NCBI GenBank assembly: GCA_013360215.1
Contig: JABWCP010000001.1
Coordinates: 277,144-341,143, forward strand
Direction of reading: 5' to 3'
Length of the DNA stretch: 64,000 nt
Origin: a bacterium
Lineage (GTDB): Bacteria > CLD3 > SB21
The notes beneath the pieces are model-generated. The model saw nothing but the letters and a program-made list of their open reading frames with translations. It had not been told where the DNA came from and did no database searches. The position numbers and the translations under genes were made by a program. The stretch's first letter is position 1; each line of letters starts with the position of its first letter. This document shows, piece after piece, positions 38,902-52,067 of this stretch.

Positions 38902-39987
38902 ATGTTGCATAGAAAAAAAATCTTATTTATCGGAGGTTCTTACAATCAATCGACGATGATGTTCGCAATCTCCCAATATCTTAAGCACTACGAATGTTAT
39001 TTTACCCCTCACTATTGCGATGGTGTACTTGATCTTTTTGCTAAAGCGGGTATGCTTGATTTTACGCCGATCGGTGGGATTCATAAGAAAGTAACAGAAG
39101 AGTTTTTTAGTCGGATGGGAGTAGCGGTTGATTACAAAGGCCTTCTCTACGACTATGATCTAGTAGTGACATGTTCCGATTTGATCATACAAAAGAATAT
39201 CCGCACTAAAAAAATCGTATTGGTCCAGGAAGGCATGACCGACCCTGAGAATCTCATGTATCATCTTGTTCGTACCTTACGGCTTCCCCGATTTCTGGCC
39301 AGTACTTCGACCAATGGTTTGTCCGATTCTTACGAAATGTTCTGCGTCGCCTCGCAGGGGTACAAAGATTTTTTTGTACGAAAAGGAGTGCGTCCTGAAA
39401 AAATAGCGGTAACCGGCATACCAAACTACGATGATCTCGCGCGCCACACAGAAAACAACTTTCCGCATCATCACTTTGTTTTGGTGGCGACCTCGGACGC
39501 TCGGGAAACCTATAAACTGGATAACCGAAAAAAATTCATCCGCAAATGCGTCGCGATCGCAGCCGGACGGCCATTGATATTCAAATTGCACCCCAATGAA
39601 AATTTTGCCCGTGCGAAGCGCGAAATCGAAACTTACGCGCCCGGTTCCAAGGTTTATACGGACGGGGATACGATGGCGATGATTGCAAACTGCGACGTAT
39701 TGATTACCCAATATTCGACCGTGGTTTATGCCGGGATTGTATTCGGAAAGGAAGTGCATTCATATTTTGATCACGACACATTACATCAGATGGCGCCGAT
39801 GCAAAACGGCGGCGACTCCGCACGCCGTATCGCATTGATCTGCGAATCGGTTCTTCATCGTTCTCCAAAATCAAACGGCAAAACCCGCTATCCTGCTTTG
39901 CTTAGTTCGGGACGCTCCGTCTACGCCAAAGCGGTAAAGCGGTTAGCCTCGATCATGAATAAAACATTGATATCATGCACATCGTAA
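38902..39987 (+). CDS. GT-B-fold protein, candidate CMP-ulosonate (sialyl/Kdo-like) transferase
   Basis: VQEG, VTGIPNYD, FKLHP and QYSTVV motifs; heads the NeuB operon. Confidence 0.55.
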   Translation: MLHRKKILFIGGSYNQSTMMFAISQYLKHYECYFTPHYCDGVLDLFAKAGMLDFTPIGGIHKKVTEEFFSRMGVAVDYKGLLYDYDLVVTCSDLIIQKNIRTKKIVLVQEGMTDPENLMYHLVRTLRLPRFLASTSTNGLSDSYEMFCVASQGYKDFFVRKGVRPEKIAVTGIPNYDDLARHTENNFPHHHFVLVATSDARETYKLDNRKKFIRKCVAIAAGRPLIFKLHPNENFARAKREIETYAPGSKVYTDGDTMAMIANCDVLITQYSTVVYAGIVFGKEVHSYFDHDTLHQMAPMQNGGDSARRIALICESVLHRSPKSNGKTRYPALLSSGRSVYAKAVKRLASIMNKTLISCTS

Positions 39988-40781
39988 CGATTGTTCAAGC
40001 CCGGTTATCCTCGACGCGATTACCAGGCAAAGTTCTGCTCCATGCCGCCGGCCAGCCTCTTCTAGGTCATATTGTTCGTCGTATCCAATCTAGTCGATAT
40101 GCCGGCACAGTCATCGTCGCTACTACCAGCAATGAGTCCGACGATCCGATAGAATTCTTTTGCCAAAAAGAAGGAATTCAATGTTTCCGCGGACATCCGA
40201 CCGATCTTTTAGACCGACATCTGATGGCTGCGCGCCTATATCGTGCGCAAGCCGTTGTCAAAATTCCCTCCGACTGCCCGCTGATTGATCCGGCGATCAT
40301 TGATCGCGTTATTGAATACTATCTTGCACACTCCGATCAATACGACTACGTGAGTAATTTGCATCCGGCGACATACCCGGATGGCAATGACGTCGAAATC
40401 ATGAACATTGCCGCTTTGACCACGGCATGGAAAGAGGCGCACCGTCCCATGGAACGCGAACACACGACTCCGTTTTTTTGGGAGAATCGCGAGCGATTTC
40501 GGATCGGTAATGTGGCTTGGGAATCGGGGTTAGATTATTCCATGTCGCACCGTTGGACATTGGACTATGCGGAGGACTACGAATTAATTTGCCGGATATA
40601 CGACGCCTTATATAAAGAAGACGAGGTGCCTTTTACTATCGCACAAATTCTGACTTTGCTTGAAACCCGACCAGAATTGGCCACAATCAATCAACGCTAT
40701 TTGGGCGTGAACTGGTATCGTCATCATTTGGATGAATTGAAAACAGTCACTTCCAAAAGCACCAATCCAACTTTTCTATAG
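39975..40781 (+). CDS. SpsF-like cytidylyltransferase (CTP_transf_3)
   Basis: IVQARLSSTRLPGKVL, SDCPLIDP, REHTT, RWTLDYAEDY. Confidence 0.85.
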   Translation: MHIVTIVQARLSSTRLPGKVLLHAAGQPLLGHIVRRIQSSRYAGTVIVATTSNESDDPIEFFCQKEGIQCFRGHPTDLLDRHLMAARLYRAQAVVKIPSDCPLIDPAIIDRVIEYYLAHSDQYDYVSNLHPATYPDGNDVEIMNIAALTTAWKEAHRPMEREHTTPFFWENRERFRIGNVAWESGLDYSMSHRWTLDYAEDYELICRIYDALYKEDEVPFTIAQILTLLETRPELATINQRYLGVNWYRHHLDELKTVTSKSTNPTFL

Positions 40782-40789
40782 GAATCGTT

Positions 40790-41647
40790 ATGCGCCGACT
40801 CGCACTGGACGAACTGCCCATCATCGCACAAAATGTGCGCGAACACATATTGCGTATGTCCACCGACGGCGGATGTTTTACCGGCGCTTCCTTGTCGTGT
40901 ACCGATCTGATCGTCTACTTGTATACACGCTTTTTAAATGTCTCTATTGATAATCTCTTTGATCCGGATCGCGATTATTTTTTTCTATCCAAGGGTCACG
41001 ATGTCCCTGCTCTCTATGGGACGCTGGCAGAACTTGGATTTATCGCACGCGCTCGTCTTAGCAATCACTTGTCGAGTCATGACACAATATACTGGCATCC
41101 CAACCGAAACATCCCCGGCATCGAATTTCACAGCGGATCGTTAGGGCACCTGATTTCCGTCGCGGCTGGAGTTGCATTGGATTGCAAGCTTCATTCGTCA
41201 CCATCACGAATCGTCGTGGCGTTAGGCGACGGTGAACTTAACGAAGGATCGGTTTGGGAAGCGTGCTTGGTGGCTCAGGCCTACCGTCTTGATAATTTGA
41301 TCTTGTTGGTAGATCGCAATGCATTTCAGGCCAACGTGCGCACTGAATCTTTAATTCCGCTAGAACCTCTCGAAGACAAATTTTCAGCGTTCAATTTTTC
41401 CGTAACCTCTATTGACGGCCATGATTTTGAGGCCATGGAGGAAACCTTTGCCCGTATTCCGATGGCAGATGGTAAACCAACCGCCATCATTGCACATACC
41501 GTTCGCGGCAAGGGCGTCCCCAGCATCGAAGCGAGAGCGGATCGTTGGTTTTGCAATTTTTCTCATGACGAGGTACAGCAGTTGATCAATGAACTTCATA
41601 CCAACCAATCGGCGGAACTAACTAGTGACACCTTATTGGTCCGGTAA
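40790..41647 (+). CDS. transketolase-like protein, N-terminal (ThDP-binding) subunit
   Basis: DRD-F-LSKGH, GSLGH, GDGELNEGSVWEA...DRN, DGHD, TVRGKGV. Confidence 0.9.
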   Translation: MRRLALDELPIIAQNVREHILRMSTDGGCFTGASLSCTDLIVYLYTRFLNVSIDNLFDPDRDYFFLSKGHDVPALYGTLAELGFIARARLSNHLSSHDTIYWHPNRNIPGIEFHSGSLGHLISVAAGVALDCKLHSSPSRIVVALGDGELNEGSVWEACLVAQAYRLDNLILLVDRNAFQANVRTESLIPLEPLEDKFSAFNFSVTSIDGHDFEAMEETFARIPMADGKPTAIIAHTVRGKGVPSIEARADRWFCNFSHDEVQQLINELHTNQSAELTSDTLLVR

Positions 41648-41745
41648 CAATTACGTTGATTAGATAACATTTCTGCTTTCTCCATAAAGAAACTTCTACA
41701 TCGGCATAATCTTAGCGCTACAATTGAAGGTTATCTTTACACATC

Positions 41746-42669
41746 ATGAAAATTAAAATCAATGAAACCTACGAAGATATCCTGACCGATCTAGTCCATC
41801 AAGACAATCGGTTTATGGCGCTAACTGCAGAAAATCGAGCGCCGATTCGAGGAATACCGGATCGCATCGGTTCGCGTTTTGTAGATACCGGCATCACCGA
41901 ACAAACGTTGATCGGTATGGCCGCCGGTCTGGCATTGCGCGGACGCATCCCCGTCGCGCATGCGCTAGCTTCATTTCTTACCATGCGCGCATTCGAATTC
42001 ATTCGCACGGATGTTGGCATTGGAGCACTCCCGGTCAAAATGGTAGGGTACATACCCGGGATATTGTCGGACGCCAATGGGCCCACCCATCAGGCCATCG
42101 AAGATGTAAGCATCATGCGCACTATTCCTCCCGTCGGTATTTTCTGTCCCGCTGATATTGATGATCTTTTGATCGGCATTCGAACGGTATTGACTGATCC
42201 ACGGCCGTTTTATATCCGTTACAATCATCGACCGGCCAATTATGTACATAGTGATCAATTTGCCATCGGAAAGGCCGAAGTCATCAAAACCGGTTCGGAT
42301 ATAGCTATTTGCACATACGGCGCTTTATTCAATGAATGCCTTCAAGCCTCGACTATACTTGAAGATGAAGGTATCTCCGTGCGACTAATCAATTTGCGAA
42401 CGCTTAAACCTATTGACAAGGAAGCCCTGCTGTGCGCAATGCGTGAAACATCGCTTTTGGTAGCCGTTGAAGATCACTTTGAGACGGGCGGGCTATCTAC
42501 CATTCTATCCGAAATTATGGTTCAGGAGACCATGACGTATCCCCCGCTGTTATCTATCGCATTTCCGACTTGGTTCAAACCTGGTTTGCTCAATGACGTA
42601 CTCGAGCATGAACGGATGACCGGCGAACATATTGCCCAGCGTATTCTCACTCGTTATAACCAAAATTAA
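41746..42669 (+). CDS. transketolase-like protein, C-terminal subunit
   Basis: GITEQ-GMAAGLA, RAFEFIR, GPTHQAIED, LKPID, VEDH. Confidence 0.9.
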   Translation: MKIKINETYEDILTDLVHQDNRFMALTAENRAPIRGIPDRIGSRFVDTGITEQTLIGMAAGLALRGRIPVAHALASFLTMRAFEFIRTDVGIGALPVKMVGYIPGILSDANGPTHQAIEDVSIMRTIPPVGIFCPADIDDLLIGIRTVLTDPRPFYIRYNHRPANYVHSDQFAIGKAEVIKTGSDIAICTYGALFNECLQASTILEDEGISVRLINLRTLKPIDKEALLCAMRETSLLVAVEDHFETGGLSTILSEIMVQETMTYPPLLSIAFPTWFKPGLLNDVLEHERMTGEHIAQRILTRYNQN

Positions 42670-42685
42670 CGCGTAATAACACTCT

Positions 42686-44035
42686 ATGACCATGACATCA
42701 CATCCCCTCAATATTGCGAACTCGGAAAAATACTATCAAAGAGCTTTGCCGCTTATTCCGGCGGGAACGCAAACGCTGGCCAAAGGACCGGGTCAATATG
42801 TGAACGGTTTTGCCCCCAAATATCTCGATCGCGGAAAAGGTGCGCACGTGTGGGATGTGGATGGAAATGAATTTATTGATTGGACGATGGGCGTAGGGCC
42901 GCTATCCCTCGGGTATGCATACCCTGCGGTAGATCGCGCGATATCCGATCAACTGAGAAAAGGAATCACTTTTTCGTTGATGCATCCATTGGAAGTCGAA
43001 GTCGCTGAGTTAATACACGACGTGGTGCCCAATGCCGAATGCGTACGATTTAGTAAAACCGGGGCCGATGTAACAAGTGCCGCAATCCGACTTGCCCGCG
43101 CTTATACCGGGCGCGACAAGGTATTGTGTTGCGGATATCATGGATGGCACGATTGGTATATCGGCGTGACAGACCGTCACCTCGGAATACCTGACGCGGT
43201 ACGCGCGATGTCGTTCACGTTTGCGTATAATGATATCGCGTCGGTCGAGGCCTCTATAGACGAAAACACGGCGTGTGTCATACTCGAACCGATCGTTTTT
43301 GAAGAGCCTCAAGACAACTTTCTGCATAAACTGCGTGCATTATGCGATCGCCACGGGGTACTGCTCATTTTTGACGAAATGTGGACCGGTTTTCGTATCG
43401 CCATTGGCGGTGCTCAAGAATATTTTGACGTCCATGCCGATCTCGCTTGCTTTTCCAAAGCTATCGCTAACGGCATGCCTTTGTCGGTGTTAACGGGGCG
43501 CGCCGATATCATGCGGCTTCTAGAAAAAGATGTTTTCTTCTTTACGACATTTGGCGGTGAAGCGCTCTCCCTAGCGGCCTGCAAAGCAACGCTGGCCGAG
43601 TTGAGCATCCATGATGTGCCGTCTTATCTCAGGTCGATGGGTATAAAAATCAAAGACGGTTATAACCAAATCGCACAGGACATGAACTTAGCCTTTACCA
43701 AGTGCGTCGGCTTGCCATTTCGAAGTATGGTGACATTTGATCCAGCGGCCGGCAACCCTCTTGAGATGAAATCATTGCTACAACAGGAGTTGATTCGACG
43801 CGGTATCTTGTGGGGCGGATTTCACAATATGAGTTATGGTCATTCGGAAGCAGATATTCAAACCACACTTGCGGCTTATGCGGAGTCTCTGGAAATATTG
43901 GGAAAAGCCGTCGGTGATCATACCGTGCGTGAAAAACTTGCCGGACTACCCATCGAACCGGTATTTCGAAAAACTACAAATTTTAACACTAAGCCGGCTG
44001 TATCACTCACAAAACCGGATGTTACTACGAAATAA
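42686..44035 (+). CDS. class III PLP aminotransferase (GSA-aminomutase-like, polysaccharide-cluster type)
   Basis: WDVDGNEFID, CGYHGWHDW, FDEMWTGFR, FSKAIANG (PLP Lys), TTFGG. Confidence 0.88.
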   Translation: MTMTSHPLNIANSEKYYQRALPLIPAGTQTLAKGPGQYVNGFAPKYLDRGKGAHVWDVDGNEFIDWTMGVGPLSLGYAYPAVDRAISDQLRKGITFSLMHPLEVEVAELIHDVVPNAECVRFSKTGADVTSAAIRLARAYTGRDKVLCCGYHGWHDWYIGVTDRHLGIPDAVRAMSFTFAYNDIASVEASIDENTACVILEPIVFEEPQDNFLHKLRALCDRHGVLLIFDEMWTGFRIAIGGAQEYFDVHADLACFSKAIANGMPLSVLTGRADIMRLLEKDVFFFTTFGGEALSLAACKATLAELSIHDVPSYLRSMGIKIKDGYNQIAQDMNLAFTKCVGLPFRSMVTFDPAAGNPLEMKSLLQQELIRRGILWGGFHNMSYGHSEADIQTTLAAYAESLEILGKAVGDHTVREKLAGLPIEPVFRKTTNFNTKPAVSLTKPDVTTK

Positions 44036-44058
44036 TTAAACCGATCGTTAACAACACT

Positions 44059-44889
44059 ATGACATCTTCCGCTTCCAATATGCCAGTTGATCTATTTTCA
44101 CTGCAAGGCCGCGTGGCCATAGTTACCGGTGCGTTGGGGTTGCTCGGTCAACAGCATTGCCGCGCCCTGACCGAAGCGGGGGCATCGGTTGTCGTTTGCG
44201 ACCTGGACGGCGACAAGTGCCGTGCTTTAGCCGAAACGCTGGGCCCCGGAGCGTTTGGTATTGGCGTCGACATCACAAATCCGGATTCGATCGGCACTCT
44301 CAAGGACGAAACTCTAAAGCGATATCAGAAGTTGGATATTCTCGTCAACAACGCGGCCATCAATGACGCCGTTGAGCATAGCGTTTCAAAGACGGACGTG
44401 TCGCAATTCGAAAACTATGCACTGAGTCACTGGAAAAAATCAATAGACGTCAACGTGACCGGCAATTTTTTATGCAATCAGATTTTGGGAACGGAGATGA
44501 CGCGTCGCGGTTCCGGAAGCATTATCCAGATTGCATCCACCTACGGCATCGTGGCACCGGATCAGCGGTTATATCGGGACGCGCAGGGAAAGCAAACCTT
44601 TTACAAGGCCGTATCGTATCCCGTTAGTAAAGCGGCCATCTTGTCCATGACACGTTATCTCGCGGCGTACTGGGGAGGTACGGGCGTACGCATCAACGCG
44701 CTATCGCCCGGCGGCGTAGAAAACGGGCAAGATGATTTTTTTATCGCTTCGTACGCGGCACGAACGCCAATGGGACGAATGGCAAGGCCTACAGACTATA
44801 AGGGTGCGCTGATCTTTTTAGCGAGTGATGCATCCGGCTATATGAACGGCGCGAACCTCGTCGTCGACGGAGGATGGACGATATGGTAG
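44059..44889 (+). CDS. short-chain dehydrogenase/reductase
   Basis: TGALGLLG, NNAA, ASTYG, YPVSK, SPGG, VDGG. Confidence 0.92.
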   Translation: MTSSASNMPVDLFSLQGRVAIVTGALGLLGQQHCRALTEAGASVVVCDLDGDKCRALAETLGPGAFGIGVDITNPDSIGTLKDETLKRYQKLDILVNNAAINDAVEHSVSKTDVSQFENYALSHWKKSIDVNVTGNFLCNQILGTEMTRRGSGSIIQIASTYGIVAPDQRLYRDAQGKQTFYKAVSYPVSKAAILSMTRYLAAYWGGTGVRINALSPGGVENGQDDFFIASYAARTPMGRMARPTDYKGALIFLASDASGYMNGANLVVDGGWTIW

Positions 44890-45386
44890 ACAATGCGCCC
44901 CTGCGCGGACGCATCGCGCCCATCAAATTATTGCTGACCGACGTAGACGGCGTACTTACTGATAACGGCGTGTACTATACGGATCAAGGCGAAGCGGCAA
45001 AGCGATTTTCAATACGCGACGGCATGGGCGTGGATCGTTTGCGAAAACTGAGATCTGTCGAGACGGGAATCATCACCGGAGAAACTTCTGTTTCCGTCAC
45101 TCATCGCGCCGCTAAGCTCGGTATTGTAGAATTACACATAGGCATATCCGATAAATACAACACCCTACTTCAAATACTTGAAAGAAGAAACCTGACCTGG
45201 GATGAAGTCGCTTATATAGGCGATGATTTCAATGACATTGAAGTGTTACGCGCGGTGGGTTTTTCGGCATGCCCGGCCGATGCCATGCCGCCGGTCATCA
45301 ATGTCTCACATTATTGGTGCCGACACAACGGCGGCCAGGGTGCCTTCCGCGAGCTGGCTGAGCTAATCATAGAATACAAACCATAG
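44874..45386 (+). CDS. KdsC-type HAD phosphatase (ulosonate 8/9-phosphate phosphatase family)
   Basis: DVDGVLTD, F-IRDG, ITG, IGDDFND, GGQGAFRE; start may be 44883. Confidence 0.9.
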   Translation: MDDMVDNAPLRGRIAPIKLLLTDVDGVLTDNGVYYTDQGEAAKRFSIRDGMGVDRLRKLRSVETGIITGETSVSVTHRAAKLGIVELHIGISDKYNTLLQILERRNLTWDEVAYIGDDFNDIEVLRAVGFSACPADAMPPVINVSHYWCRHNGGQGAFRELAELIIEYKP

Positions 45387-45406
45387 ACCAATCGGAGTGA
45401 AATGTC

Positions 45407-46312
45407 ATGCGCAAGCGAGAAGTCAAAATCGGTAAATCAACCGTTGGCGACGGGCACCCCGTCTATGTAATCGCGGAAATAGGCATCAATCACAATGGCT
45501 CCCTCGACGTAGCCAAAAAAATGATTGACGGTGCCGTATTTGCCGGGTGCAATGCGGTTAAATTTCAGAAAAGAACACCTGAACTTTGCGTACCAAAAGA
45601 TCAGTGGTACAGCGAGCGCGATACGCCGTGGGGACGCATGAGTTACATCGAATACCGTAATCGTATGGAGTTTACGTCGCAAGAGTACGCGCAAATTGAT
45701 GTTTATTGCAGGGAAAAAGGGATTGACTGGTTCGCATCTTGTTGGGACGAAGAAGCCGTCGATTTTATCGACCATTTTGATCCGCCGTGTTACAAAGTGG
45801 CTTCCGCAAGCTTGACGGATATCGCATTGCTGAAGCGCCTGGAAAAAACCGGAAAGCCGATTATTATTTCTACAGGGATGTCAACCATCCATGAGATTGA
45901 GACCGCGGTCGCGACAGTTCCGCACGAACAGTTATTGATCGCACACACGACCTCCGCCTATCCTTGTAAAGCCGAAGAGCTAAATCTTCGTATGATTCAA
46001 ACGCTGCGTGAAAAATATCCTACGATCCCTGTCGGTTACTCGGGGCACGAAACTGGCTTGACGCCGACATGGTCGGCCGTGAGTCTGGGTGCCTGTTTTG
46101 TCGAGCGGCATATCACACTGGATCGCGCCATGTGGGGCACCGATCAAGCCGCTTCGGTCGAAATTATCGGATTGCACCATCTCGTGCGTGACATTCGCGA
46201 TATCGAAAAAGCGCTCGGCGACGGCGTGAAGAAAGTCTATATGAGTGAAATTTCACCTATGCAGAAACTAAGACGTGTGCCGGCGTCCGCTATTAGTCAA
46301 AAGGCTGTCTAG
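45407..46312 (+). CDS. NeuB-family PEP-dependent nonulosonate synthase, short form without SAF domain
   Basis: IAEIGINHNG, VKFQKR, KVAS, STGMS, GYSGHE, ERHITLDR, DQAAS; 301 aa. Confidence 0.92.
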   Translation: MRKREVKIGKSTVGDGHPVYVIAEIGINHNGSLDVAKKMIDGAVFAGCNAVKFQKRTPELCVPKDQWYSERDTPWGRMSYIEYRNRMEFTSQEYAQIDVYCREKGIDWFASCWDEEAVDFIDHFDPPCYKVASASLTDIALLKRLEKTGKPIIISTGMSTIHEIETAVATVPHEQLLIAHTTSAYPCKAEELNLRMIQTLREKYPTIPVGYSGHETGLTPTWSAVSLGACFVERHITLDRAMWGTDQAASVEIIGLHHLVRDIRDIEKALGDGVKKVYMSEISPMQKLRRVPASAISQKAV

Positions 46313-46316
46313 TCCT

Positions 46317-47084
46317 ATGTCTAATACCAGCCTGGCAGCAACCGTACTTGTACTTGTCGGCGCGGTGATCATTATTGGCCTTGAAAGAATCAAGCCCTAC
46401 GATGCACGGCAGCATTTTTTTCGGCAGGAACTAGTGACGGATTTCTTTTACTACAACGCTTTTCAAAGTTTCATTCTCGGCCTCGTGATATCCGCCATAA
46501 TTGGCTGGTTGGATACTGTTTGCGGCAGAATTCACATCCCATTCTTCTTAGCATGGCCGTTCCTAGGACAACTTGCATTTTTCCTGGTACTTCACGATTT
46601 CTATATTTATTGGTTTCATCGCTGGCAACACCGCATTACGATACTCTGGCGCATTCATGAAGCACATCACTCCGCACGCAGTGTGGACTGGGTCTCGGGT
46701 ATGCGATCGCATGCATTAGAAATTCTGATTAACCAAACGATAGAATTTGCGCCGATCGTTTTACTTGGCGCTTCACCGGAGATCATCGTCTGGAAGGCGG
46801 CCATTGACGCGATCTGGGGAATGTATATTCACTCGAATATCAACGTTAAGTCAGGACGTCTGCAATATTTGATCAACGGTCCTGAAATGCATCGCTGGCA
46901 TCATGCTGTCCATGATACCCAGGCGTATAACAAAAACTTTTCTACAAAGCTGGCCATGTGGGATTGGATGTTCGGTACCGCATTTTTTCCGAAAGATCGA
47001 AAGCCCGAAGCGTATGGTTTGGATCATTCACATTTTCCGAATGGTTTTTTTAGGCAGTTCCTTTATGCATTCAGAAAGTCGTAA
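46317..47084 (+). CDS. sterol desaturase / fatty acid hydroxylase family protein
   Basis: TM helices; His boxes HRWQH, HEAHH, HSN, HRWHH; WDWMFGT; ATG at 46317. Confidence 0.9.
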   Translation: MSNTSLAATVLVLVGAVIIIGLERIKPYDARQHFFRQELVTDFFYYNAFQSFILGLVISAIIGWLDTVCGRIHIPFFLAWPFLGQLAFFLVLHDFYIYWFHRWQHRITILWRIHEAHHSARSVDWVSGMRSHALEILINQTIEFAPIVLLGASPEIIVWKAAIDAIWGMYIHSNINVKSGRLQYLINGPEMHRWHHAVHDTQAYNKNFSTKLAMWDWMFGTAFFPKDRKPEAYGLDHSHFPNGFFRQFLYAFRKS

Positions 47085-47087
47085 GTG

Positions 47088-47413
47088 ATGGCTTGGATTT
47101 ATCTTCTCATTGCCGGTGTTTTAGAAATAGGATGGGTTATTTGCCTGCGTTTATCCGAGGGGTTCACACGCGTGATCCCGATGATAGGTTACGCTGTTTT
47201 CGGGTTATTAGCCGCTTTTTCTTGAGCAAAGCACTTAAAACCATGCACGTAGGAACCGCGTATGCCATTTGGATGGGAATTGCCGTAACGGGAACGACGC
47301 TAACGAGTGTTCTTGTATACAAAGAGCCGACTTCCTGGATAAGAGTCGCATTCGTCGGATTAATCGTATTTGGAATTGTCGGCTTGCAACTTACTTCTCC
47401 ACAAAAACCATAG
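47088..47413 (+). pseudogene. SMR/DMT (SugE/Gdx-like) small transporter with frameshift
   Basis: MAWIYLLIAGVLEIGW...GFT frame stops at 47223-47225; FLSKALK...GTAYAIW continues in another frame; one extra T in the T5 run at 47216-47220 restores it. Confidence 0.85.
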
Positions 47414-47422
47414 GCCAAAACC

Positions 47423-47875
47423 ATGGACGCCATCGATGTGAAACGACGGAATATTCTAATTTTCGTGATATCAGTTTTTGTACTGCTCGTTGCAACCCAT
47501 GACGGCGAATTTTGGCCATTTTCTATTTTTCCGATGTTCTCCAAAGCAGGACAACCTTGGCAACGCATCGTGATAAGGAAAGTAGAGGCCGCGCCTTCAA
47601 ATGATTATTACGCACTTGATGAATTGCCGGGATTCCCGATTGCGTTGGATGCCTATGGTGTCGAAGCCATTGACGTTGCCGATTTTGTTCGCCATACGAC
47701 GCATTGGACACCGCAACGCCTTCAAGCATTATCTCATTTGTTACAATCGCGACCGAGTTCGCAGCAATGGCTTGTTATGCGAGTTGATGGCCAGAAGACC
47801 ATCGATGGAATTCGTATTCAGGCTGTACCACTACTGCTCTTCAACGATAGCTCCGTTTTCGAGGTCACTCCATGA
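47423..47875 (+). CDS. membrane-anchored hypothetical protein with WPFS-x-FPMFS motif
   Basis: Single N-terminal TM then EFWPFSIFPMFS; ATGA-coupled to the next gene. Confidence 0.7.
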   Translation: MDAIDVKRRNILIFVISVFVLLVATHDGEFWPFSIFPMFSKAGQPWQRIVIRKVEAAPSNDYYALDELPGFPIALDAYGVEAIDVADFVRHTTHWTPQRLQALSHLLQSRPSSQQWLVMRVDGQKTIDGIRIQAVPLLLFNDSSVFEVTP

Positions 47876-48774
47876 ATCAACTTTCAGCGCTACTATTTCA
47901 ATCGTGGTATGCGTCGGATAACGACGAGAAATTTCATTTTCGCCTATTCGAATTTTTTGTTTTATCGGGCAGCATTTATTATGCCTGGTCTTGGGCTGAT
48001 TACATTCGCCAAATAAGCGACAATATACACCCACTAGGTATCGCGCAGCACGTGCCGATAGACTTCATGTATGGTAACATGATTCCGCATTTATTTGCTA
48101 TCGTGATAACGACATTGGCCTTTCTCATTTTTTTGGGACGCGCGCATCGCTACGCCCATGCAATAATTCTTGTGCTGTTGCATTTATTACTCGTAGCGCG
48201 CGATGCGATGGGTGAAATCGGGCATAGCGCTAATTTCATCGGTCTGAGTGTTCTGGCTTTAGCTGTAGCCTATGCGTCTTGCGGCCAGGACGGCGAAAGA
48301 CGACGCATGGCACTGGGACTGACTGTTTTTTTTATCGGACTGGGATATGTATCCGCCGCGCTATGCAAGCTGATTGCCACCGGCGTTTTTTGGCCTGATG
48401 GTATGCACCTCGCTCTGTGGATCGCAGAGAAAAAAATAGACACAATCGCCCGCACGGGCATTTACGAAGCTAATCCGCTTCAGCAAATGGTTTTGACACA
48501 TCACAGTGCAGGTACGTTGATGCTTGGTTTCGGTCTCACTGCGGAATTGCTGGGGTTCCTTATTTGGTGGAAACGATTTCGCCCGTACATCACCCTCTTG
48601 CTTGTGGCCATGCACACCGGCATATCGCTTACCATGAATATCCGCTTTGACTCCTTCATTTTGCAACTCCTTATTTTAGGTTTACCTTGGCCGATTTGGA
48701 AAAACAAAATATTAGACTACATCTCAAAAGTAAGCGGGAGTCGCAAAATCCTTAACAAAAATGCATCCGTATGA
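47872..48774 (+). CDS. HTTM-like polytopic membrane protein
   Basis: Multiple TM helices; YVSAALCKL-W-DG, ELLG, MHTGI-MNI-F pattern. Confidence 0.6.
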   Translation: MNQLSALLFQSWYASDNDEKFHFRLFEFFVLSGSIYYAWSWADYIRQISDNIHPLGIAQHVPIDFMYGNMIPHLFAIVITTLAFLIFLGRAHRYAHAIILVLLHLLLVARDAMGEIGHSANFIGLSVLALAVAYASCGQDGERRRMALGLTVFFIGLGYVSAALCKLIATGVFWPDGMHLALWIAEKKIDTIARTGIYEANPLQQMVLTHHSAGTLMLGFGLTAELLGFLIWWKRFRPYITLLLVAMHTGISLTMNIRFDSFILQLLILGLPWPIWKNKILDYISKVSGSRKILNKNASV

Positions 48775-49457
48775 TATTTATTGTCGTGTGGTTATTGTTG
48801 GCATTTTGGCCGATGCAAAAAAATCTGGTTGTTGAAGATTTTGAATCCGATGCACTCGGCGGTATTCCCGCCCGCTGGTATAATCGCGACGGTACAGGGC
48901 GTCCAAATTCCTATAGCGCGGATCTTCGCAGAGGTTACCAATACGAAGTTCTGTCGGAAAAGCCCGGCAACCAATTTTTACGATACAATGGATACCACGC
49001 AAAACACCTCGCGTTCCACTTTGTCAAGGATAGACATTGGTCAATTAAGAAATATCCCGTATTGACGTGGCGGTGGCGTGCATGGAAACTTCCGATAGGA
49101 GCCAATGAAGCCTTGGATGAAAAAAATGATGCCGTTTTGAGCGTGTATGTTGTTTTTGACAAAGGAAATTGGGTAAGGCCGCCGCAGGTCATTCGTTATG
49201 TATGGAGTTCGACACTCCCTATCGGAACCATACTTACAAAATCCTCCGGGCGTCAGAAGATCGTGGTCATTGCCTCGGGAAACAGAGACCTCGGCCAGTG
49301 GATCAACGTCACGCGTTCGATCTCAGACGATTATCAAAGCCTGTTCGGACATGCTGAAGTTCCTGATCCGATCTCTCTCCTCCTATTAAGCGATGCCGAT
49401 GATACGCAAACATGGGCCATTGGCGACTATGATGATTTCTCCATAGGCAGCTTATGA
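48771..49457 (+). CDS. DUF3047-like exported protein
   Basis: Signal peptide; LTWRWR, GANE, VYVVF, IRYVWSS-LP-G, DDY-LFG, SDADDT. Confidence 0.75.
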   Translation: MIFIVVWLLLAFWPMQKNLVVEDFESDALGGIPARWYNRDGTGRPNSYSADLRRGYQYEVLSEKPGNQFLRYNGYHAKHLAFHFVKDRHWSIKKYPVLTWRWRAWKLPIGANEALDEKNDAVLSVYVVFDKGNWVRPPQVIRYVWSSTLPIGTILTKSSGRQKIVVIASGNRDLGQWINVTRSISDDYQSLFGHAEVPDPISLLLLSDADDTQTWAIGDYDDFSIGSL

Positions 49458-50599
49458 AGCCCAAGGTTCTTCACTTTAAGACAAATTTTCTCAATCCATC
49501 AGAGACGTTTATCGAACGACTTGTTACCGGCCACCAGACCTATGAGCCTATTTGCGCTTGCGCTAATCGCCGAACGCTTGCCAACAGTATCCGAACGTAT
49601 GTAATGCCAAAAGATGGTATGACGGGATTAGTCAATCGCTATGAATTGATGCTCAATCGGACACCCCGATTTCTGGATAGAATATTTGAGGATGAAAAAC
49701 CGGATATCATCCATGCACACTTCGGGTTAGATGCATACCGTATGGTACAAATATCCAAAAAAACAAAAACACCGTTGATCGTTGGGTTCTACGGATCGGA
49801 CGTCACACGACTTCCCAGAGAATTTGGATGGGAACGGCGATACGCAAGACTCGCGGCGCATGCGGACCATAGTATAGCACTATCTTCGCATATGCGTGAT
49901 CAGCTGATTCAGCTCCGGTTTCCGCCCGACAAAATATCCGTGGTTTATTTCGGCTTAGATCTAAATCGTTTTATTCATCATTTACGACCGCATGGAAATC
50001 GGATCATGTTGGTCGGTCGAATGGTGGAAAAAAAAGGGTTTTCGACCGCCCTTCAAGCTGCTCAGATACTAAAACAAGACGGCATACCGTTCGAAATGCA
50101 CTTCTACGGAGACGGTCCATTGTTGTCTTCGTTGCAGTCCTTGGTCCGGGAACGGAGCTTGCAGGATCGCGTTTCTTTTCACGGCTTGGTAAGCAATGAG
50201 CAAATACGCCTTGCGTTACATCAAAATCATATCATGATTGTGCCAAGCCGGCGTGCACGCGATGGCGATGAAGAGGGATTGCCTAATACGCTTATTGAAG
50301 CGATGGCTTCCGGTTTACCGGTTGTCGCTTCCCGACACGCGGCGATTCCGGAAGTGATCCGGCACCAAACGGACGGCCTATTGTTTGATGAAAATGACGT
50401 CCAAGCGCTTGCACTACACTTGAAGTATTTACTTGGGGCGCCAGAAAAAATGAAGAGCCTTTCCGTCAAAGCACGCCAACGCATCGAACAACTCGGTTTT
50501 TCCATTGACACGACCGTTCAAAAGATCGAAGATATTTATTCACACGTTTTGCAAAGTAAAAAATCCAAAACTCGTGATTTCACTTTCCGAGCGCAATGA
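49454..50599 (+). CDS. GT4 glycosyltransferase (WcaL-like)
   Basis: SETFI, IHAHFG, GRMVEKKG, GDGPL, EGLPNTLIEAMASGLPV. Confidence 0.9.
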   Translation: MKPKVLHFKTNFLNPSETFIERLVTGHQTYEPICACANRRTLANSIRTYVMPKDGMTGLVNRYELMLNRTPRFLDRIFEDEKPDIIHAHFGLDAYRMVQISKKTKTPLIVGFYGSDVTRLPREFGWERRYARLAAHADHSIALSSHMRDQLIQLRFPPDKISVVYFGLDLNRFIHHLRPHGNRIMLVGRMVEKKGFSTALQAAQILKQDGIPFEMHFYGDGPLLSSLQSLVRERSLQDRVSFHGLVSNEQIRLALHQNHIMIVPSRRARDGDEEGLPNTLIEAMASGLPVVASRHAAIPEVIRHQTDGLLFDENDVQALALHLKYLLGAPEKMKSLSVKARQRIEQLGFSIDTTVQKIEDIYSHVLQSKKSKTRDFTFRAQ

Positions 50600-52067
50600 A
50601 TGCACGTCTGATCGTTTCCCGGTGAACCAAACCAAACTTCCAGCTTAACAAAAAAAATACAATCGCATAAATGACGAAGGAAATCACAAACCCTGATGCA
50701 TGCTGCGAAGCATCCAATACTCTATAGCGTATAAACCAAGTTGCCAGCCCTGACAGCGCCGCCAAGATCAGTACTTTCAGATAGTGATGGAAAGGAATGA
50801 CTTTGTAAAACGGCAACTTCATGTGATTTCCGATTCGCCGCAACGCCATGCACCAGGCGGCCATATTGGCCAGCCAGGCGGCCACAGCTGTCCCTGTAAT
50901 ACCCCACCAATACGTAAACGGAACGCACAATAAGGTGTTTGTGAGTACGAGAAATAACGACAGGAACAAAATTCCTCTTTTATCACCGAATGCCTGCAAC
51001 GCGCCGCCATAGGATGTGACACGGTGAAGCACGATCAAAGAAAACACTTGAAATGGAATAATAGACGCCATATAGGACGAGCCAAACATCAGGCAAATGA
51101 AATCTTGGGCTGAAGCGATAAAAAAAATCGTAATCGGGACGACGATCATCGTCACGTTGCGTATTGCACTATGCCACAATGCCGTTAAACGCTGCCGATC
51201 TTCATCCATAATATGACGTACAAATTGACCGATCAGTGCCGAACTCACCGCATAAGGTATCACCGCAACGATCGGAATTTCTTGCGCTCCAATATTGTAT
51301 TCCGCCAAAGCCACCGGTGTTAAAATCGCCGCCACGATAAATTTGTCCACATGTTTATTGAAACGGCTGATCAACGACGCCGAGCCGATGATAACGGAAA
51401 ATCGGATCTGCGCTATGACGGATCCTTTGGCCAAGGACTCACGATCGGGAGGCAAAATCAGGTCCATGAGATACCATGACATGACAAAACGAATGAAGGC
51501 ATATGCGGCAAGCCCATAAATAGCATAGGACAATGGAAATTTAAGAATCAGCGGGACTGCCAAAGCCAAAAGCGTCATGATGCTGGTAATAATCTGATAC
51601 CATGCTGCATAAGTTGTTCGAGCGAACGCAATAAGAATATTGGTTACCGGCCATGTCGGAACCTCCAGAATCATAACAAGAGACATCCAGGGCAAAAACT
51701 GTTTTAGATATTCAATCTGACTTTTTTCCCACTCTGCACTGAGAAACGACTCTATTATCAAGGGCAAAAAGCCTATTGCGAGCCCTACGACCAATGCCAT
51801 CAGCCCTACAATAGTGAAAGTCTGAAGGACTAAAGCGCGGCGTGCCTGAATTTCAGTTCGTTCAAAAAAATAAAAAATGCTGTCCGGAAAACCCATGGTC
51901 GCAATAAAGCGACCTACCTGAAAAATCATAAGTAAATAGCTCATCACGGCAAAATCAGATTTATCCAGCAACCGAACGATGATAATGGCTGTCAAAAGAT
52001 CAATACCCGTAGTCACAATGCCGGCAGCGGTTACGACAAATGCCTTTTTTCCTAATGCAGATGACAT
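50580..52067 (-). CDS. Wzx-like oligosaccharide flippase (MOP superfamily)
   Basis: About 14 TM helices; VRLL-K-DF, VDKFIV, Y-IG, GITGTAVA patterns. Confidence 0.8.
   Translation of the reverse strand: MSSALGKKAFVVTAAGIVTTGIDLLTAIIIVRLLDKSDFAVMSYLLMIFQVGRFIATMGFPDSIFYFFERTEIQARRALVLQTFTIVGLMALVVGLAIGFLPLIIESFLSAEWEKSQIEYLKQFLPWMSLVMILEVPTWPVTNILIAFARTTYAAWYQIITSIMTLLALAVPLILKFPLSYAIYGLAAYAFIRFVMSWYLMDLILPPDRESLAKGSVIAQIRFSVIIGSASLISRFNKHVDKFIVAAILTPVALAEYNIGAQEIPIVAVIPYAVSSALIGQFVRHIMDEDRQRLTALWHSAIRNVTMIVVPITIFFIASAQDFICLMFGSSYMASIIPFQVFSLIVLHRVTSYGGALQAFGDKRGILFLSLFLVLTNTLLCVPFTYWWGITGTAVAAWLANMAAWCMALRRIGNHMKLPFYKVIPFHHYLKVLILAALSGLATWFIRYRVLDASQHASGFVISFVIYAIVFFLLSWKFGLVHRETIRRAFIALGK

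Follow-up and report, generated by a model that had tools for sequence, protein, structure and literature searches.

The surfaces of bacteria are shaped by ulosonic acids, among them 3-deoxy-D-manno-oct-2-ulosonic acid (Kdo) and the sialic, legionaminic and pseudaminic acids, and to our knowledge few pathways for their biosynthesis have been described. Bacteroides thetaiotaomicron makes 2-keto-3-deoxy-D-glycero-D-galacto-nononic acid (Kdn) with a Kdn-9-P synthase, the Kdn-9-P phosphatase BT1713 and a cytidine monophosphate (CMP)-Kdn synthetase, and in the Shewanella route to Kdo8N the alcohol oxidase KdnB and the aminotransferase KdnA act on free Kdo. Related enzyme sets occur in the routes to aminoDAHP and kanosamine (RifL/K/M/N with the transketolase Orf15, and NtdABC). 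Here we describe eight co-oriented genes at positions 38902-46312 of a 64,000-nucleotide stretch (the window) of contig JABWCP010000001.1 from the bacterial assembly GCA_013360215.1 (genome G000 below). Judging from the comparisons that follow, it is fairly likely that these genes belong to a mobile module for the synthesis, CMP activation and transfer to a membrane acceptor of a modified 3-deoxy-2-ulosonic acid, most likely one that carries an amino group. The product would probably be an undescribed cell-surface sugar of the sialic-acid/Kdo type.

The genes follow each other with short intergenic gaps or overlaps, all on the + strand of the open reading frame (ORF) list. Domains were assigned with Pfam and with NCBIfam equivalog models at their curated cut-offs, and the fold of gene 1 with an AlphaFold model and fold searches:

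38902-39987, + strand: gene 1, GT-B fold protein of an unnamed family, putative CMP-sugar transferase (AlphaFold model, fold searches)
39975-40781, + strand: gene 2, CTP_transf_3 cytidylyltransferase of the KdsB/NeuA superfamily, putative CMP-ulosonate synthetase (Pfam, 94.9 bits)
40790-41647, + strand: gene 3, N-terminal (PP-domain) half of a split transketolase-like thiamine diphosphate (ThDP) enzyme (Transketolase_N, 92.4 bits)
41746-42669, + strand: gene 4, C-terminal (Pyr and C domain) half of the split transketolase-like enzyme (Transket_pyr, 84.6 bits; Transketolase_C, 78.5 bits)
42686-44035, + strand: gene 5 (AT3), class III pyridoxal phosphate aminotransferase, glutamate-1-semialdehyde (GSA) aminomutase-like/omega-type (Aminotran_3, 159.9 bits)
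44059-44889, + strand: gene 6, classical short-chain dehydrogenase/reductase (SDR) oxidoreductase (adh_short_C2, 157 bits)
44874-45386, + strand: gene 7, KdsC-type haloacid dehalogenase (HAD) phosphatase, ulosonate-phosphate phosphatase (TIGR01670, 146.9 bits)
45407-46312, + strand: gene 8, SAF-less NeuB-family synthase condensing phosphoenolpyruvate (PEP) with an aldose (PF03102, 257.2 bits)

These assignments bear out the eight genes and the identities proposed by the first-pass annotation, with one change of detail: gene 2 is a cytidylyltransferase, and the label 'SpsF-like' falls away, the evidence being the CTP_transf_3 match only. Catalytic motifs are intact in every enzyme and invariant among relatives. 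The window assembly is not chimeric, because single contigs of two other public runs span the region (run X7, 38902-50600, with 12 letters different from the window; run X12, 38902-48892, with 28), and near-identical copies of the stretch were found in activated-sludge and sludge metagenome runs of several studies, with no RNA run listed among them. Rfam gave no RNA element at E <= 0.1 between 38300 and 51000, and scans for promoters (16 against 18.9) and terminators (12 against 14.8) did no better than on shuffled sequences.

The last two genes and the cytidylyltransferase resemble the Kdn pathway, where a sugar phosphate is likewise the substrate of a NeuB-family synthase and the further enzymes are a HAD phosphatase of the KdsC type and a cytidylyltransferase of the CTP_transf_3 family. 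Gene 8 encodes 301 amino acids, with the Pfam NeuB domain at residues 39-275 and no SAF domain by Pfam. The SAF (antifreeze-like) domain of NeuB carries the essential Arg314, and environmental NeuBs are often without it, according to passages of PMC8208679. The synthase falls below the cut-offs of both the N-acetylneuraminate synthase equivalog TIGR03569 (249.2 bits, cut-off 399.65) and the PseI equivalog TIGR03586 (204.6 bits, cut-off 340.25). Its metal- and PEP-binding motifs EIGINHNG, KFQKRTPE, GYSGHE and ERHxTLDR are invariant in 78 relatives, and the family has 104 invariant positions altogether. The phosphatase, the sole KdsC-type gene of G000 by tblastn, passes the KdsC/YrbI-family HAD model TIGR01670 at 146.9 bits (cut-off 106.95) with conserved HAD motifs DxDGV and GDDxND, and stays below the KdsC equivalog PRK09484 (138.5 of 208 bits). 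Gene 2 scores 38.6 bits on the KdsB equivalog (cut-off 155.2), and KdsB structures align to its N-terminal ~120 residues only. The closest solved relatives are an unnamed cytidylyltransferase for gene 2 (6oew, E 7.8e-39) and a 290-amino-acid NeuB for gene 8 (6ncs), both presumably leptospiral.

Unlike the Kdn pathway, the module has a phosphatase that remains under the Kdn-9-P phosphatase equivalog NF058599 (151.2 of 180 bits), and it adds an SDR, a class III aminotransferase, a transketolase-like enzyme, a GT-B protein of its own and membrane partners. A Pfam scan of the operon found no dehydratase, DegT-type aminotransferase, acetyltransferase or recognisable NeuC family, in agreement with the first-pass annotation. 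Its claim that the operon fits no canonical route to N-acetylneuraminic, pseudaminic or legionaminic acid also stands, both through these absent accessory enzymes and through the synthase scores. A kinase family was likewise absent from the module, both in the Pfam scan and in ORF clustering of 80 related loci.

Gene 5 reaches 392.3 bits on PRK06209 (cut-off 486) and 241.8 bits on the HemL (GSA aminomutase) equivalog TIGR00713 (cut-off 527.3); it is nearest to the GSA aminomutases, at a level below their cut-offs. Its matches in the PDB are GSA aminomutases, D-phenylglycine aminotransferase and aminoglycoside C-6' aminotransferases, the last of which aminate sugar aldehydes; the lysine motif 'SKA.ANGMP' is invariant among relatives. 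The usual substrates of class III aminotransferases are aldehydes or ketones whose carbonyl lies far from a carboxylate. The nearest NCBIfam models of the SDR are gluconate 5-dehydrogenase, PRK09186 and KduD, all below cut-off, and the first and last of these act on sugar acids; the motifs TGxxGxxG, S160 and Y187-x3-K191 are conserved among relatives. In the Kdo8N route a hydroxyl of the finished ulosonate is oxidized and transaminated before CMP activation, as in the order of steps that we favor for the module (see below). In the module, an SDR takes the place of the iron alcohol dehydrogenase and the aminotransferase is of class III; a ThDP enzyme occurs only in the module, and KdnA is not among the best 60 of the 75 PDB matches of gene 5.

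The strongest departure from known enzymes was observed in the transketolase-like pair. The closest solved structures are the two halves of the split transketolase of Carboxydothermus hydrogenoformans (6yak for gene 3, E 2e-51; 6yaj for gene 4, E 2e-41), which has the same two-gene architecture. Residues that hold or activate ThDP and its metal are kept, namely GDG...N (G146-D-G), H70, H103 and H211 in gene 3 and the cofactor-activating Glu52 in gene 4. The substrate pocket was compared at the sites of human transketolase which we take to be His37, His258, Arg318, Ser345, His416, Asp424 and Arg474. The His37 equivalent, the canonical 'GH' histidine that contacts the donor C1-OH, is Phe in 36 of 36 family members (Phe30 in gene 3), and the equivalent of His258, its partner in holding that hydroxyl, is kept in 35 of 36. 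The Arg318 site is missing or non-Arg in all 40 relatives (Asn6 in the window), the Ser345 equivalent is Pro33 in gene 4 of the window, the His416 equivalent is V, F or I in 40/40 (Ile103) and the Asp424 equivalent is Asn in 40/40 (Asn111). Arg474 is represented by Arg in only 6/40 (the window has Arg162), and a new loop, N-R-A-A-I-R-N, is conserved in the gene 4 family. The Carboxydothermus enzyme has His, Arg, Ser, His and Asp where genes 3 and 4 have Phe30, Asn6, Pro33, Ile103 and Asn111, and a paralogous split transketolase on contig C20 of G000 keeps the lost His and Arg. The alignments thus indicate that the canonical sugar-phosphate pocket has been lost throughout the family. Because its residues are replaced family-wide, the enzyme is no pentose-phosphate transketolase, and it is unlikely to bind sugar phosphates as transketolases normally do. 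It could remove a terminal two-carbon unit from an (omega-1)-oxo sugar acid, lengthen an omega-aldehyde or introduce a two-carbon branch. A pocket not built for phosphate would also make this variant of interest as a biocatalyst.

The C20 paralog looks canonical and is 36.7% identical to gene 3 and 31% to gene 4. It lies in an apparent second glycan locus of G000 (~28-67 kb of the contig), together with a true UDP-N-acetylglucosamine (UDP-GlcNAc) 2-epimerase (358.5 bits), several GT4 genes, a Gfo-type oxidoreductase and an SDR.

A scan with the window's NeuB, taking one genome per species, gave at least 559 relatives among at least 598 matching stretches, and at least 8000 homologs were found at E <= 1e-50. 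Locus analyses covered the best 80 of the at least 559 relatives, which are 64-73% identical to the window's NeuB and come, by record title, from Ignavibacteriota, Bacteroidota, Nitrospirota, Pseudomonadota, Chloroflexota, Bdellovibrionota, Chlorobiota and a Polyangiales bin. Contigs labeled Melioribacter roseus (L072) and Ignavibacterium (L012) hold module variants, and both genera have cultured members. The joint conservation that the first-pass annotation had made its test was found: of the 56 loci whose sequence reaches 7 kb or more upstream of NeuB, 33 have genes 1-6 and 8 colinear on one strand, with the phosphatase also present in 23 of these 33, and where the genes are scattered they are still inherited together. 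Clustering of 1178 ORFs from the 80 loci returned only ten families present in at least 20 of them, namely the eight above, an FA_hydroxylase (33 loci) and a small multidrug resistance (SMR) protein (23 loci); the next most frequent occurs in 9. The module is self-contained and its surroundings vary, since only module families recur. The operon of the first-pass annotation therefore stands as to its genes and was drawn too short, as the conserved unit continues past NeuB through the hydroxylase and the SMR-type gene and ends at ~47413.

Variants of the module show which parts hold together. Seven loci of Flavobacteriales and Competibacteraceae carry only phosphatase-NeuB-hydroxylase-SMR-SMR. 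In the five such genomes that were searched, genes 1 and 2 and the N-terminal transketolase half (TktN) stand together at a second locus (5/5), the aminotransferase AT3 was found elsewhere in 5/5 and the C-terminal half (TktC) elsewhere in 4/5; because the missing genes sit at other loci of these genomes, the module genes are co-inherited even without adjacency. Six loci are without the transketolase, and the five genomes searched contain no module-type TktN; their best match is a 35-36% identical part of a long frame (655-665 amino acids in two uncut cases) or nothing, and this version of the module is genuine. A Saprospiraceae-type version has the order SDR-phosphatase-NeuB-GT-B-Gfo/Idh/MocA oxidoreductase-PseF-like cytidylyltransferase-flippase-like (MprF-type) protein. 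No AT3 at E <= 1e-40 was found in 4/5 genomes of this type (the fifth has a 41% match), and none of the five has a TktN match above 39% identity. The NeuBs of these AT3- and TK-less genomes are as similar to the window's NeuB (66-73% identical) as those of AT3-bearing genomes, and they form one clade nested among AT3-positive ones. The pattern is thus a nested one: a core of NeuB, phosphatase, SDR, cytidylyltransferase and GT-B protein, to which first the aminotransferase and then the ThDP enzyme is added.

The phylogeny points to transfer between lineages. On a tree of 78 NeuB sequences, 16 changes of phylum label are required where 6 would be the minimum, and even if only the well-supported branches are counted, several changes are needed inside Ignavibacteriota, Bacteroidota and Pseudomonadota. 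Only G000 and 3 of 14 other genomes of the window's own family have a close NeuB (70-77% identical); these three carry the whole set at identities not above those of other phyla and with other flanking genes. The module is thus horizontally mobile and has spread across at least seven phyla.

The comparisons above show the gene content of the module, its conservation, co-inheritance and mobility, the active-site changes throughout the transketolase-like family and scores short of every curated equivalog cut-off. We infer from them the following route, from substrate and step order to the site of amination, the role of the ThDP enzyme and the acceptor. The SAF-less NeuB would condense PEP with a common aldose phosphate, the KdsC-type phosphatase would take off the terminal phosphate, and oxidation by the SDR would turn one hydroxyl of the free ulosonate into an oxo group. 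This oxo intermediate would be the branch point: in the full version, the enzyme of genes 3 and 4 would make or break an adjacent carbon-carbon bond, and the omega-type aminotransferase would then install the amine. Gene 2 would convert the sugar to its CMP form and the GT-B protein would transfer it, with the OlsE-like hydroxylase and the SMR protein acting on, or moving, a lipid-linked or membrane-proximal acceptor or product. The first-pass annotation allowed tailoring either before or after the synthase; we lean toward the latter because the SDR belongs to the core while AT3 and the transketolase are add-ons, because the transketolase phosphate site is lost, and because class III aminotransferases prefer carbonyls away from a carboxylate. 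The nesting of AT3-less NeuBs among the others suggests that the synthase substrate does not depend on AT3 or the transketolase. The oxo intermediate is placed at the branch point since the AT3-less variant pairs the SDR with another oxidoreductase, which could, for example, re-reduce it to an epimer.

Several observations weigh against this interpretation. The argument from the AT3-less variant rests on one clade and so on one evolutionary event. The gene order transketolase-AT3-SDR-phosphatase-NeuB can be read equally well as a forward route to an amino-aldose phosphate. Ten of the 33 colinear loci have no phosphatase gene. The best structural matches of gene 1 are UDP-GlcNAc 2-epimerases, so that it is perhaps not a transferase. 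Finally, surveys of ornithine lipid synthase (OlsF) and serine palmitoyltransferase in 35 module genomes and G000 found no acceptor for the module sugar.

The alternative that survives best, which we nevertheless regard as unlikely, puts the tailoring ahead of the synthase. An amino-aldose phosphate, built by the transketolase-like enzyme together with the aminotransferase and the SDR, would be condensed with PEP by NeuB, giving a neuraminic-acid-like sugar with a free amine; one option is a path from a ketose phosphate through a 2-amino-alditol phosphate to a 2-amino-aldose phosphate, another an aminomutase/transketolase route like those to aminoDAHP or kanosamine. The order of genes 3-4-5-6-(7)-8 matches such a route and is kept in all 33 complete loci, the GSA aminomutases nearest to gene 5 handle alpha-amino aldehydes, and a terminal phosphate that needs a KdsC-type phosphatase suits a sugar-phosphate route. 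Furthermore, sugar phosphates are known substrates of enzyme triads made up of an oxidoreductase, an aminotransferase and a HAD phosphatase (NtdABC, Rif). The aminoDAHP/kanosamine routes combine these three kinds of enzyme with a transketolase and a PEP-condensing synthase, as the module does. Those routes use DegT-type aminotransferases, Gfo-type oxidoreductases, enzymes of the DAHP-synthase family and a transketolase with a normal pocket, and they lead to an aromatic precursor rather than a CMP-sugar. Against this alternative, the known aminotransferases of keto-sugar phosphates are of the DegT type and not of class III. In addition, all four canonical phosphate-binding positions of transketolase are lost across the gene 3/4 family, NeuBs without AT3 and transketolase are equally similar to the window's and nested among AT3-bearing ones, and the SDR stays in the core where AT3 is absent. 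These points favor the order in which the free ulosonate is tailored.

The role of gene 1 was assessed from its predicted structure, as it has no Pfam match at E <= 0.001. Below cut-off, it reaches 17.7 bits on Glyphos_transf (PF04464; cut-off 22.1) and 16.6 bits on Epimerase_2 (PF02350; cut-off 30.6). An AlphaFold (AF2) model built from 33 relatives (predicted local distance difference test, pLDDT, 83.8; predicted template modeling score, pTM, 0.79) has the two Rossmann domains of a GT-B fold by Foldseek and VIA-align. In VIA-align, NeuC 5zlr scored Z 17.7 (root-mean-square deviation 3.8 over 279 residues), PglA Z 15.9 and TagF Z 15.0; UDP-GlcNAc 2-epimerases including NeuC thus score 2-3 Z above glycosyltransferases and TagF, and they also top the Foldseek matches. 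The family profile, searched against the PDB, found only the TagF-like polymerase Cps3D (E 8.4e-5). A motif K-L-H-P-N-E is invariant among relatives of gene 1, and such a 'K-x-H-P' motif is typical of TagF-like and CMP-sugar-using GT-B enzymes. Some of the at least 6664 homologs are named 'CDP-glycerol glycerophosphotransferase family protein' by NCBI. The protein seems to fit neither the 2-epimerases nor TagF cleanly. We read it with moderate confidence as the transferase of the CMP-sugar, since it travels with the cytidylyltransferase in every variant examined and the module has no other transferase.

It is improbable, in our judgment, that gene 1 is instead a divergent enzyme of the NeuC/LegG/PseG type that frees an aldose from a nucleotide sugar, in which case the module would be a disguised sialic-acid-type pathway with its transferase elsewhere. 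The structural ranking just described is what speaks for this, with NeuC 5zlr and other 2-epimerases best in VIA-align and Foldseek alike. The Epimerase_2 score is little more than half its cut-off, however, and in hhalign the family matched 13 true epimerases of related genomes with a probability of 2.6%, over the C-terminal domain only. The epimerase motifs are lost as well: Asp-Ala stands at the invariant His-Arg of HRRE, and QYSxVVYxG replaces DSGGxQEE. Moreover, the module has no kinase to feed a phosphatase-dependent synthase, gene 1 is always accompanied by the cytidylyltransferase, and a mobile CMP-sugar module without a transferase would presumably be useless to a new host.

Beyond NeuB, the window continues as follows:

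46317-47084, + strand: membrane di-iron hydroxylase of the FA_hydroxylase family, OlsE-like (PF04116, 100.8 bits)
47088-47413, + strand: SugE-like SMR four-helix transporter gene, in two frames in the assembly (PF00893)
47423-49457, + strand: three genes, for a 150-amino-acid protein, a 300-amino-acid multi-pass membrane protein and a DUF3047 protein

The hydroxylase ORF extends over 46275-47084 with a probable ATG start at 46317. OlsE (NF052566) is its sole NCBIfam match (116.9 bits, cut-off 475), its three His boxes are conserved among relatives, and it directly follows NeuB in 29 of the 66 loci with at least 1.5 kb downstream and in 3/3 same-family genomes. Run X7 also contains a second, much deeper contig (depth 174.7), which aligns with the hydroxylase gene to either side of a diverged 97-base stretch of equal length (window 46777-46875), presumably a related gene of another organism in the sample. 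PF00893 covers only the C-terminal half of the listed SMR ORF, the N-terminal half lying in another frame, and the stop follows a T-run near 47216-47225. Runs X7 and X12 have one extra T behind 47215, which leaves the gene uninterrupted, and X8 reads like the window; the frameshift is either an assembly slip or strain variation. An intact homolog scores 97.3 bits on the SugE model (cut-off 126), and the SMR gene is sometimes paired after NeuB. The genes at 47423-50599 and the Wzx-type flippase and GT4 genes beyond show no conservation with the module (0, 0, 0 and 1 of 80 loci). The three genes at 47423-49457 have no informative family matches. Their homologs (42-49% identity) adjoin gene 1, upstream and divergent, in one same-family genome (G006; L108, 17271-19295), and the trio is absent from the 80 related loci of other lineages; it is possible that these are lineage-specific accessory genes outside the general module.

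The partner genes suggest a site at the membrane, as they encode an OlsE-like hydroxylase, one or two SMR proteins and, in one variant, an MprF-type flippase-like protein. Two lipids were considered as the general acceptor, and neither found support. OlsF exceeds its cut-off in only 5/35 module genomes, and tblastn with the OlsF protein of a module locus found no homolog in G000. A true, bifunctional OlsF (717.5 against 620 bits, scored on the copy in L021) does lie beside the module in 7 of 80 loci. In six Ignavibacteria-type loci (L010, L012, L021, L040, L052, L062) it is just downstream, after NeuB, the hydroxylase or the SMR gene, with one ORF between in L040; in L023 it is 8 kb off. A sphingolipid is kept as a lead only, and a clear serine palmitoyltransferase (cut-off 640) was found in just 2/35 module genomes. 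On the CFB serine palmitoyltransferase model, where BioF/Kbl-like genes score ~340-380 bits, an alpha-oxoamine synthase gene with 466-677 bits is present in 31 of the 35 module genomes (G056-G090), and the sole member of this family in G000 reaches 379 bits, level with BioF and Kbl. Eight module genomes score 567-589 bits, and six of these are labeled Nitrospirota.

That the product is instead a soluble, exported amino sugar acid, with the SMR protein as its exporter and the CMP step serving another purpose, is very improbable, since the SugE-like gene or gene pair after NeuB in 23/80 loci and the lack of a conserved flippase, polymerase or further glycosyltransferase in the module would fit export, but the cytidylyltransferase and GT-B protein are core and together in every variant examined, SMR proteins of this kind carry small cations and not acidic sugars, and an MprF-type flippase-like protein takes the place of the SMR protein in the Saprospiraceae variant.

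A more specific version of the membrane-acceptor model is appealing and, taken as a whole, rather doubtful. In it, a free sugar acid with its carboxylate would have its carbon chain shortened, extended or branched by the dedicated transketolase-type ThDP enzyme, the omega-transaminase would then aminate it, and a new GT-B family would place the zwitterionic sugar on a lipid prepared by the OlsE-like hydroxylase. Under the same joint and equally doubtful reading, the module would mirror in nature the synthetic transketolase-transaminase cascade, and its product would be an undescribed glycolipid head group common in bacteria of sludge and sediment. An aminoglycosphingolipid of Chlorobium reportedly bears neuraminic acid, and the glycolipid of the module may be related to it.

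The module was also considered as a replacement for Kdo in the lineage of G000, and this was rejected: none of 17 same-order relatives has KdsA, and only 3 of them carry the module NeuB. In G000 the best KdsA score is 140.1 bits (cut-off 314), and no match to KdsB, the WaaA N-terminal domain or KpsF/KdsD exceeds its cut-off. LpxC is over cut-off in G000 and all 17 relatives, and no KdsA is (best ~120-140 against 314 bits, probably 3-deoxy-D-arabino-heptulosonate 7-phosphate (DAHP) synthase); two sister-family genomes of the same class have KdsA. The order of G000 would thus be a lipid-A-bearing lineage without a recognizable Kdo pathway. Arabinose-5-P isomerase (TIGR00393, E <= 1e-20) was found in neither G000 nor 19 of 20 relatives, a result of little weight because it was also missed in two KdsA-bearing relatives.

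The nearest published case found is a gene cluster of Leptospira interrogans, in which a nonulosonic acid (NulO) synthase fused to a phosphatase-like domain adjoins an unassigned aminotransferase and a CMP-NulO synthetase, as described in section 7 of PMC3438082. Unlike the module, that cluster holds a full legionaminic-acid set (dehydratase, LegC, acetyltransferase, LegG), and the word 'transketolase' appears nowhere in the main text of the article (PMC3438082, main text). Our search of open-access full-text literature found no described pathway with the gene set of the module, an outcome in favor of the first-pass annotation, although subscription journals or supplements could contain one. 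A paper on C. butyricum and an anammox glycoproteomics preprint proved to be unrelated. The names of module proteins in databases are generic ('N-acetylneuraminate synthase family protein', 'hypothetical protein', 'CDP-glycerol glycerophosphotransferase family protein').

As far as sequence comparison can tell, then, the tailoring enzymes of the module match no described pathway and probably represent a widespread type of CMP-ulosonic-acid biosynthesis. The module is common, with at least 8000 NeuB and at least 6664 gene 1 homologs, and with its 8-10 genes it is small enough to be tested directly. If the proposed route is true, it would provide its hosts with a new acidic or zwitterionic surface sugar, include the first ThDP-dependent carbon-carbon step in ulosonic-acid biosynthesis and define a new family of CMP-sugar-dependent GT-B enzymes.

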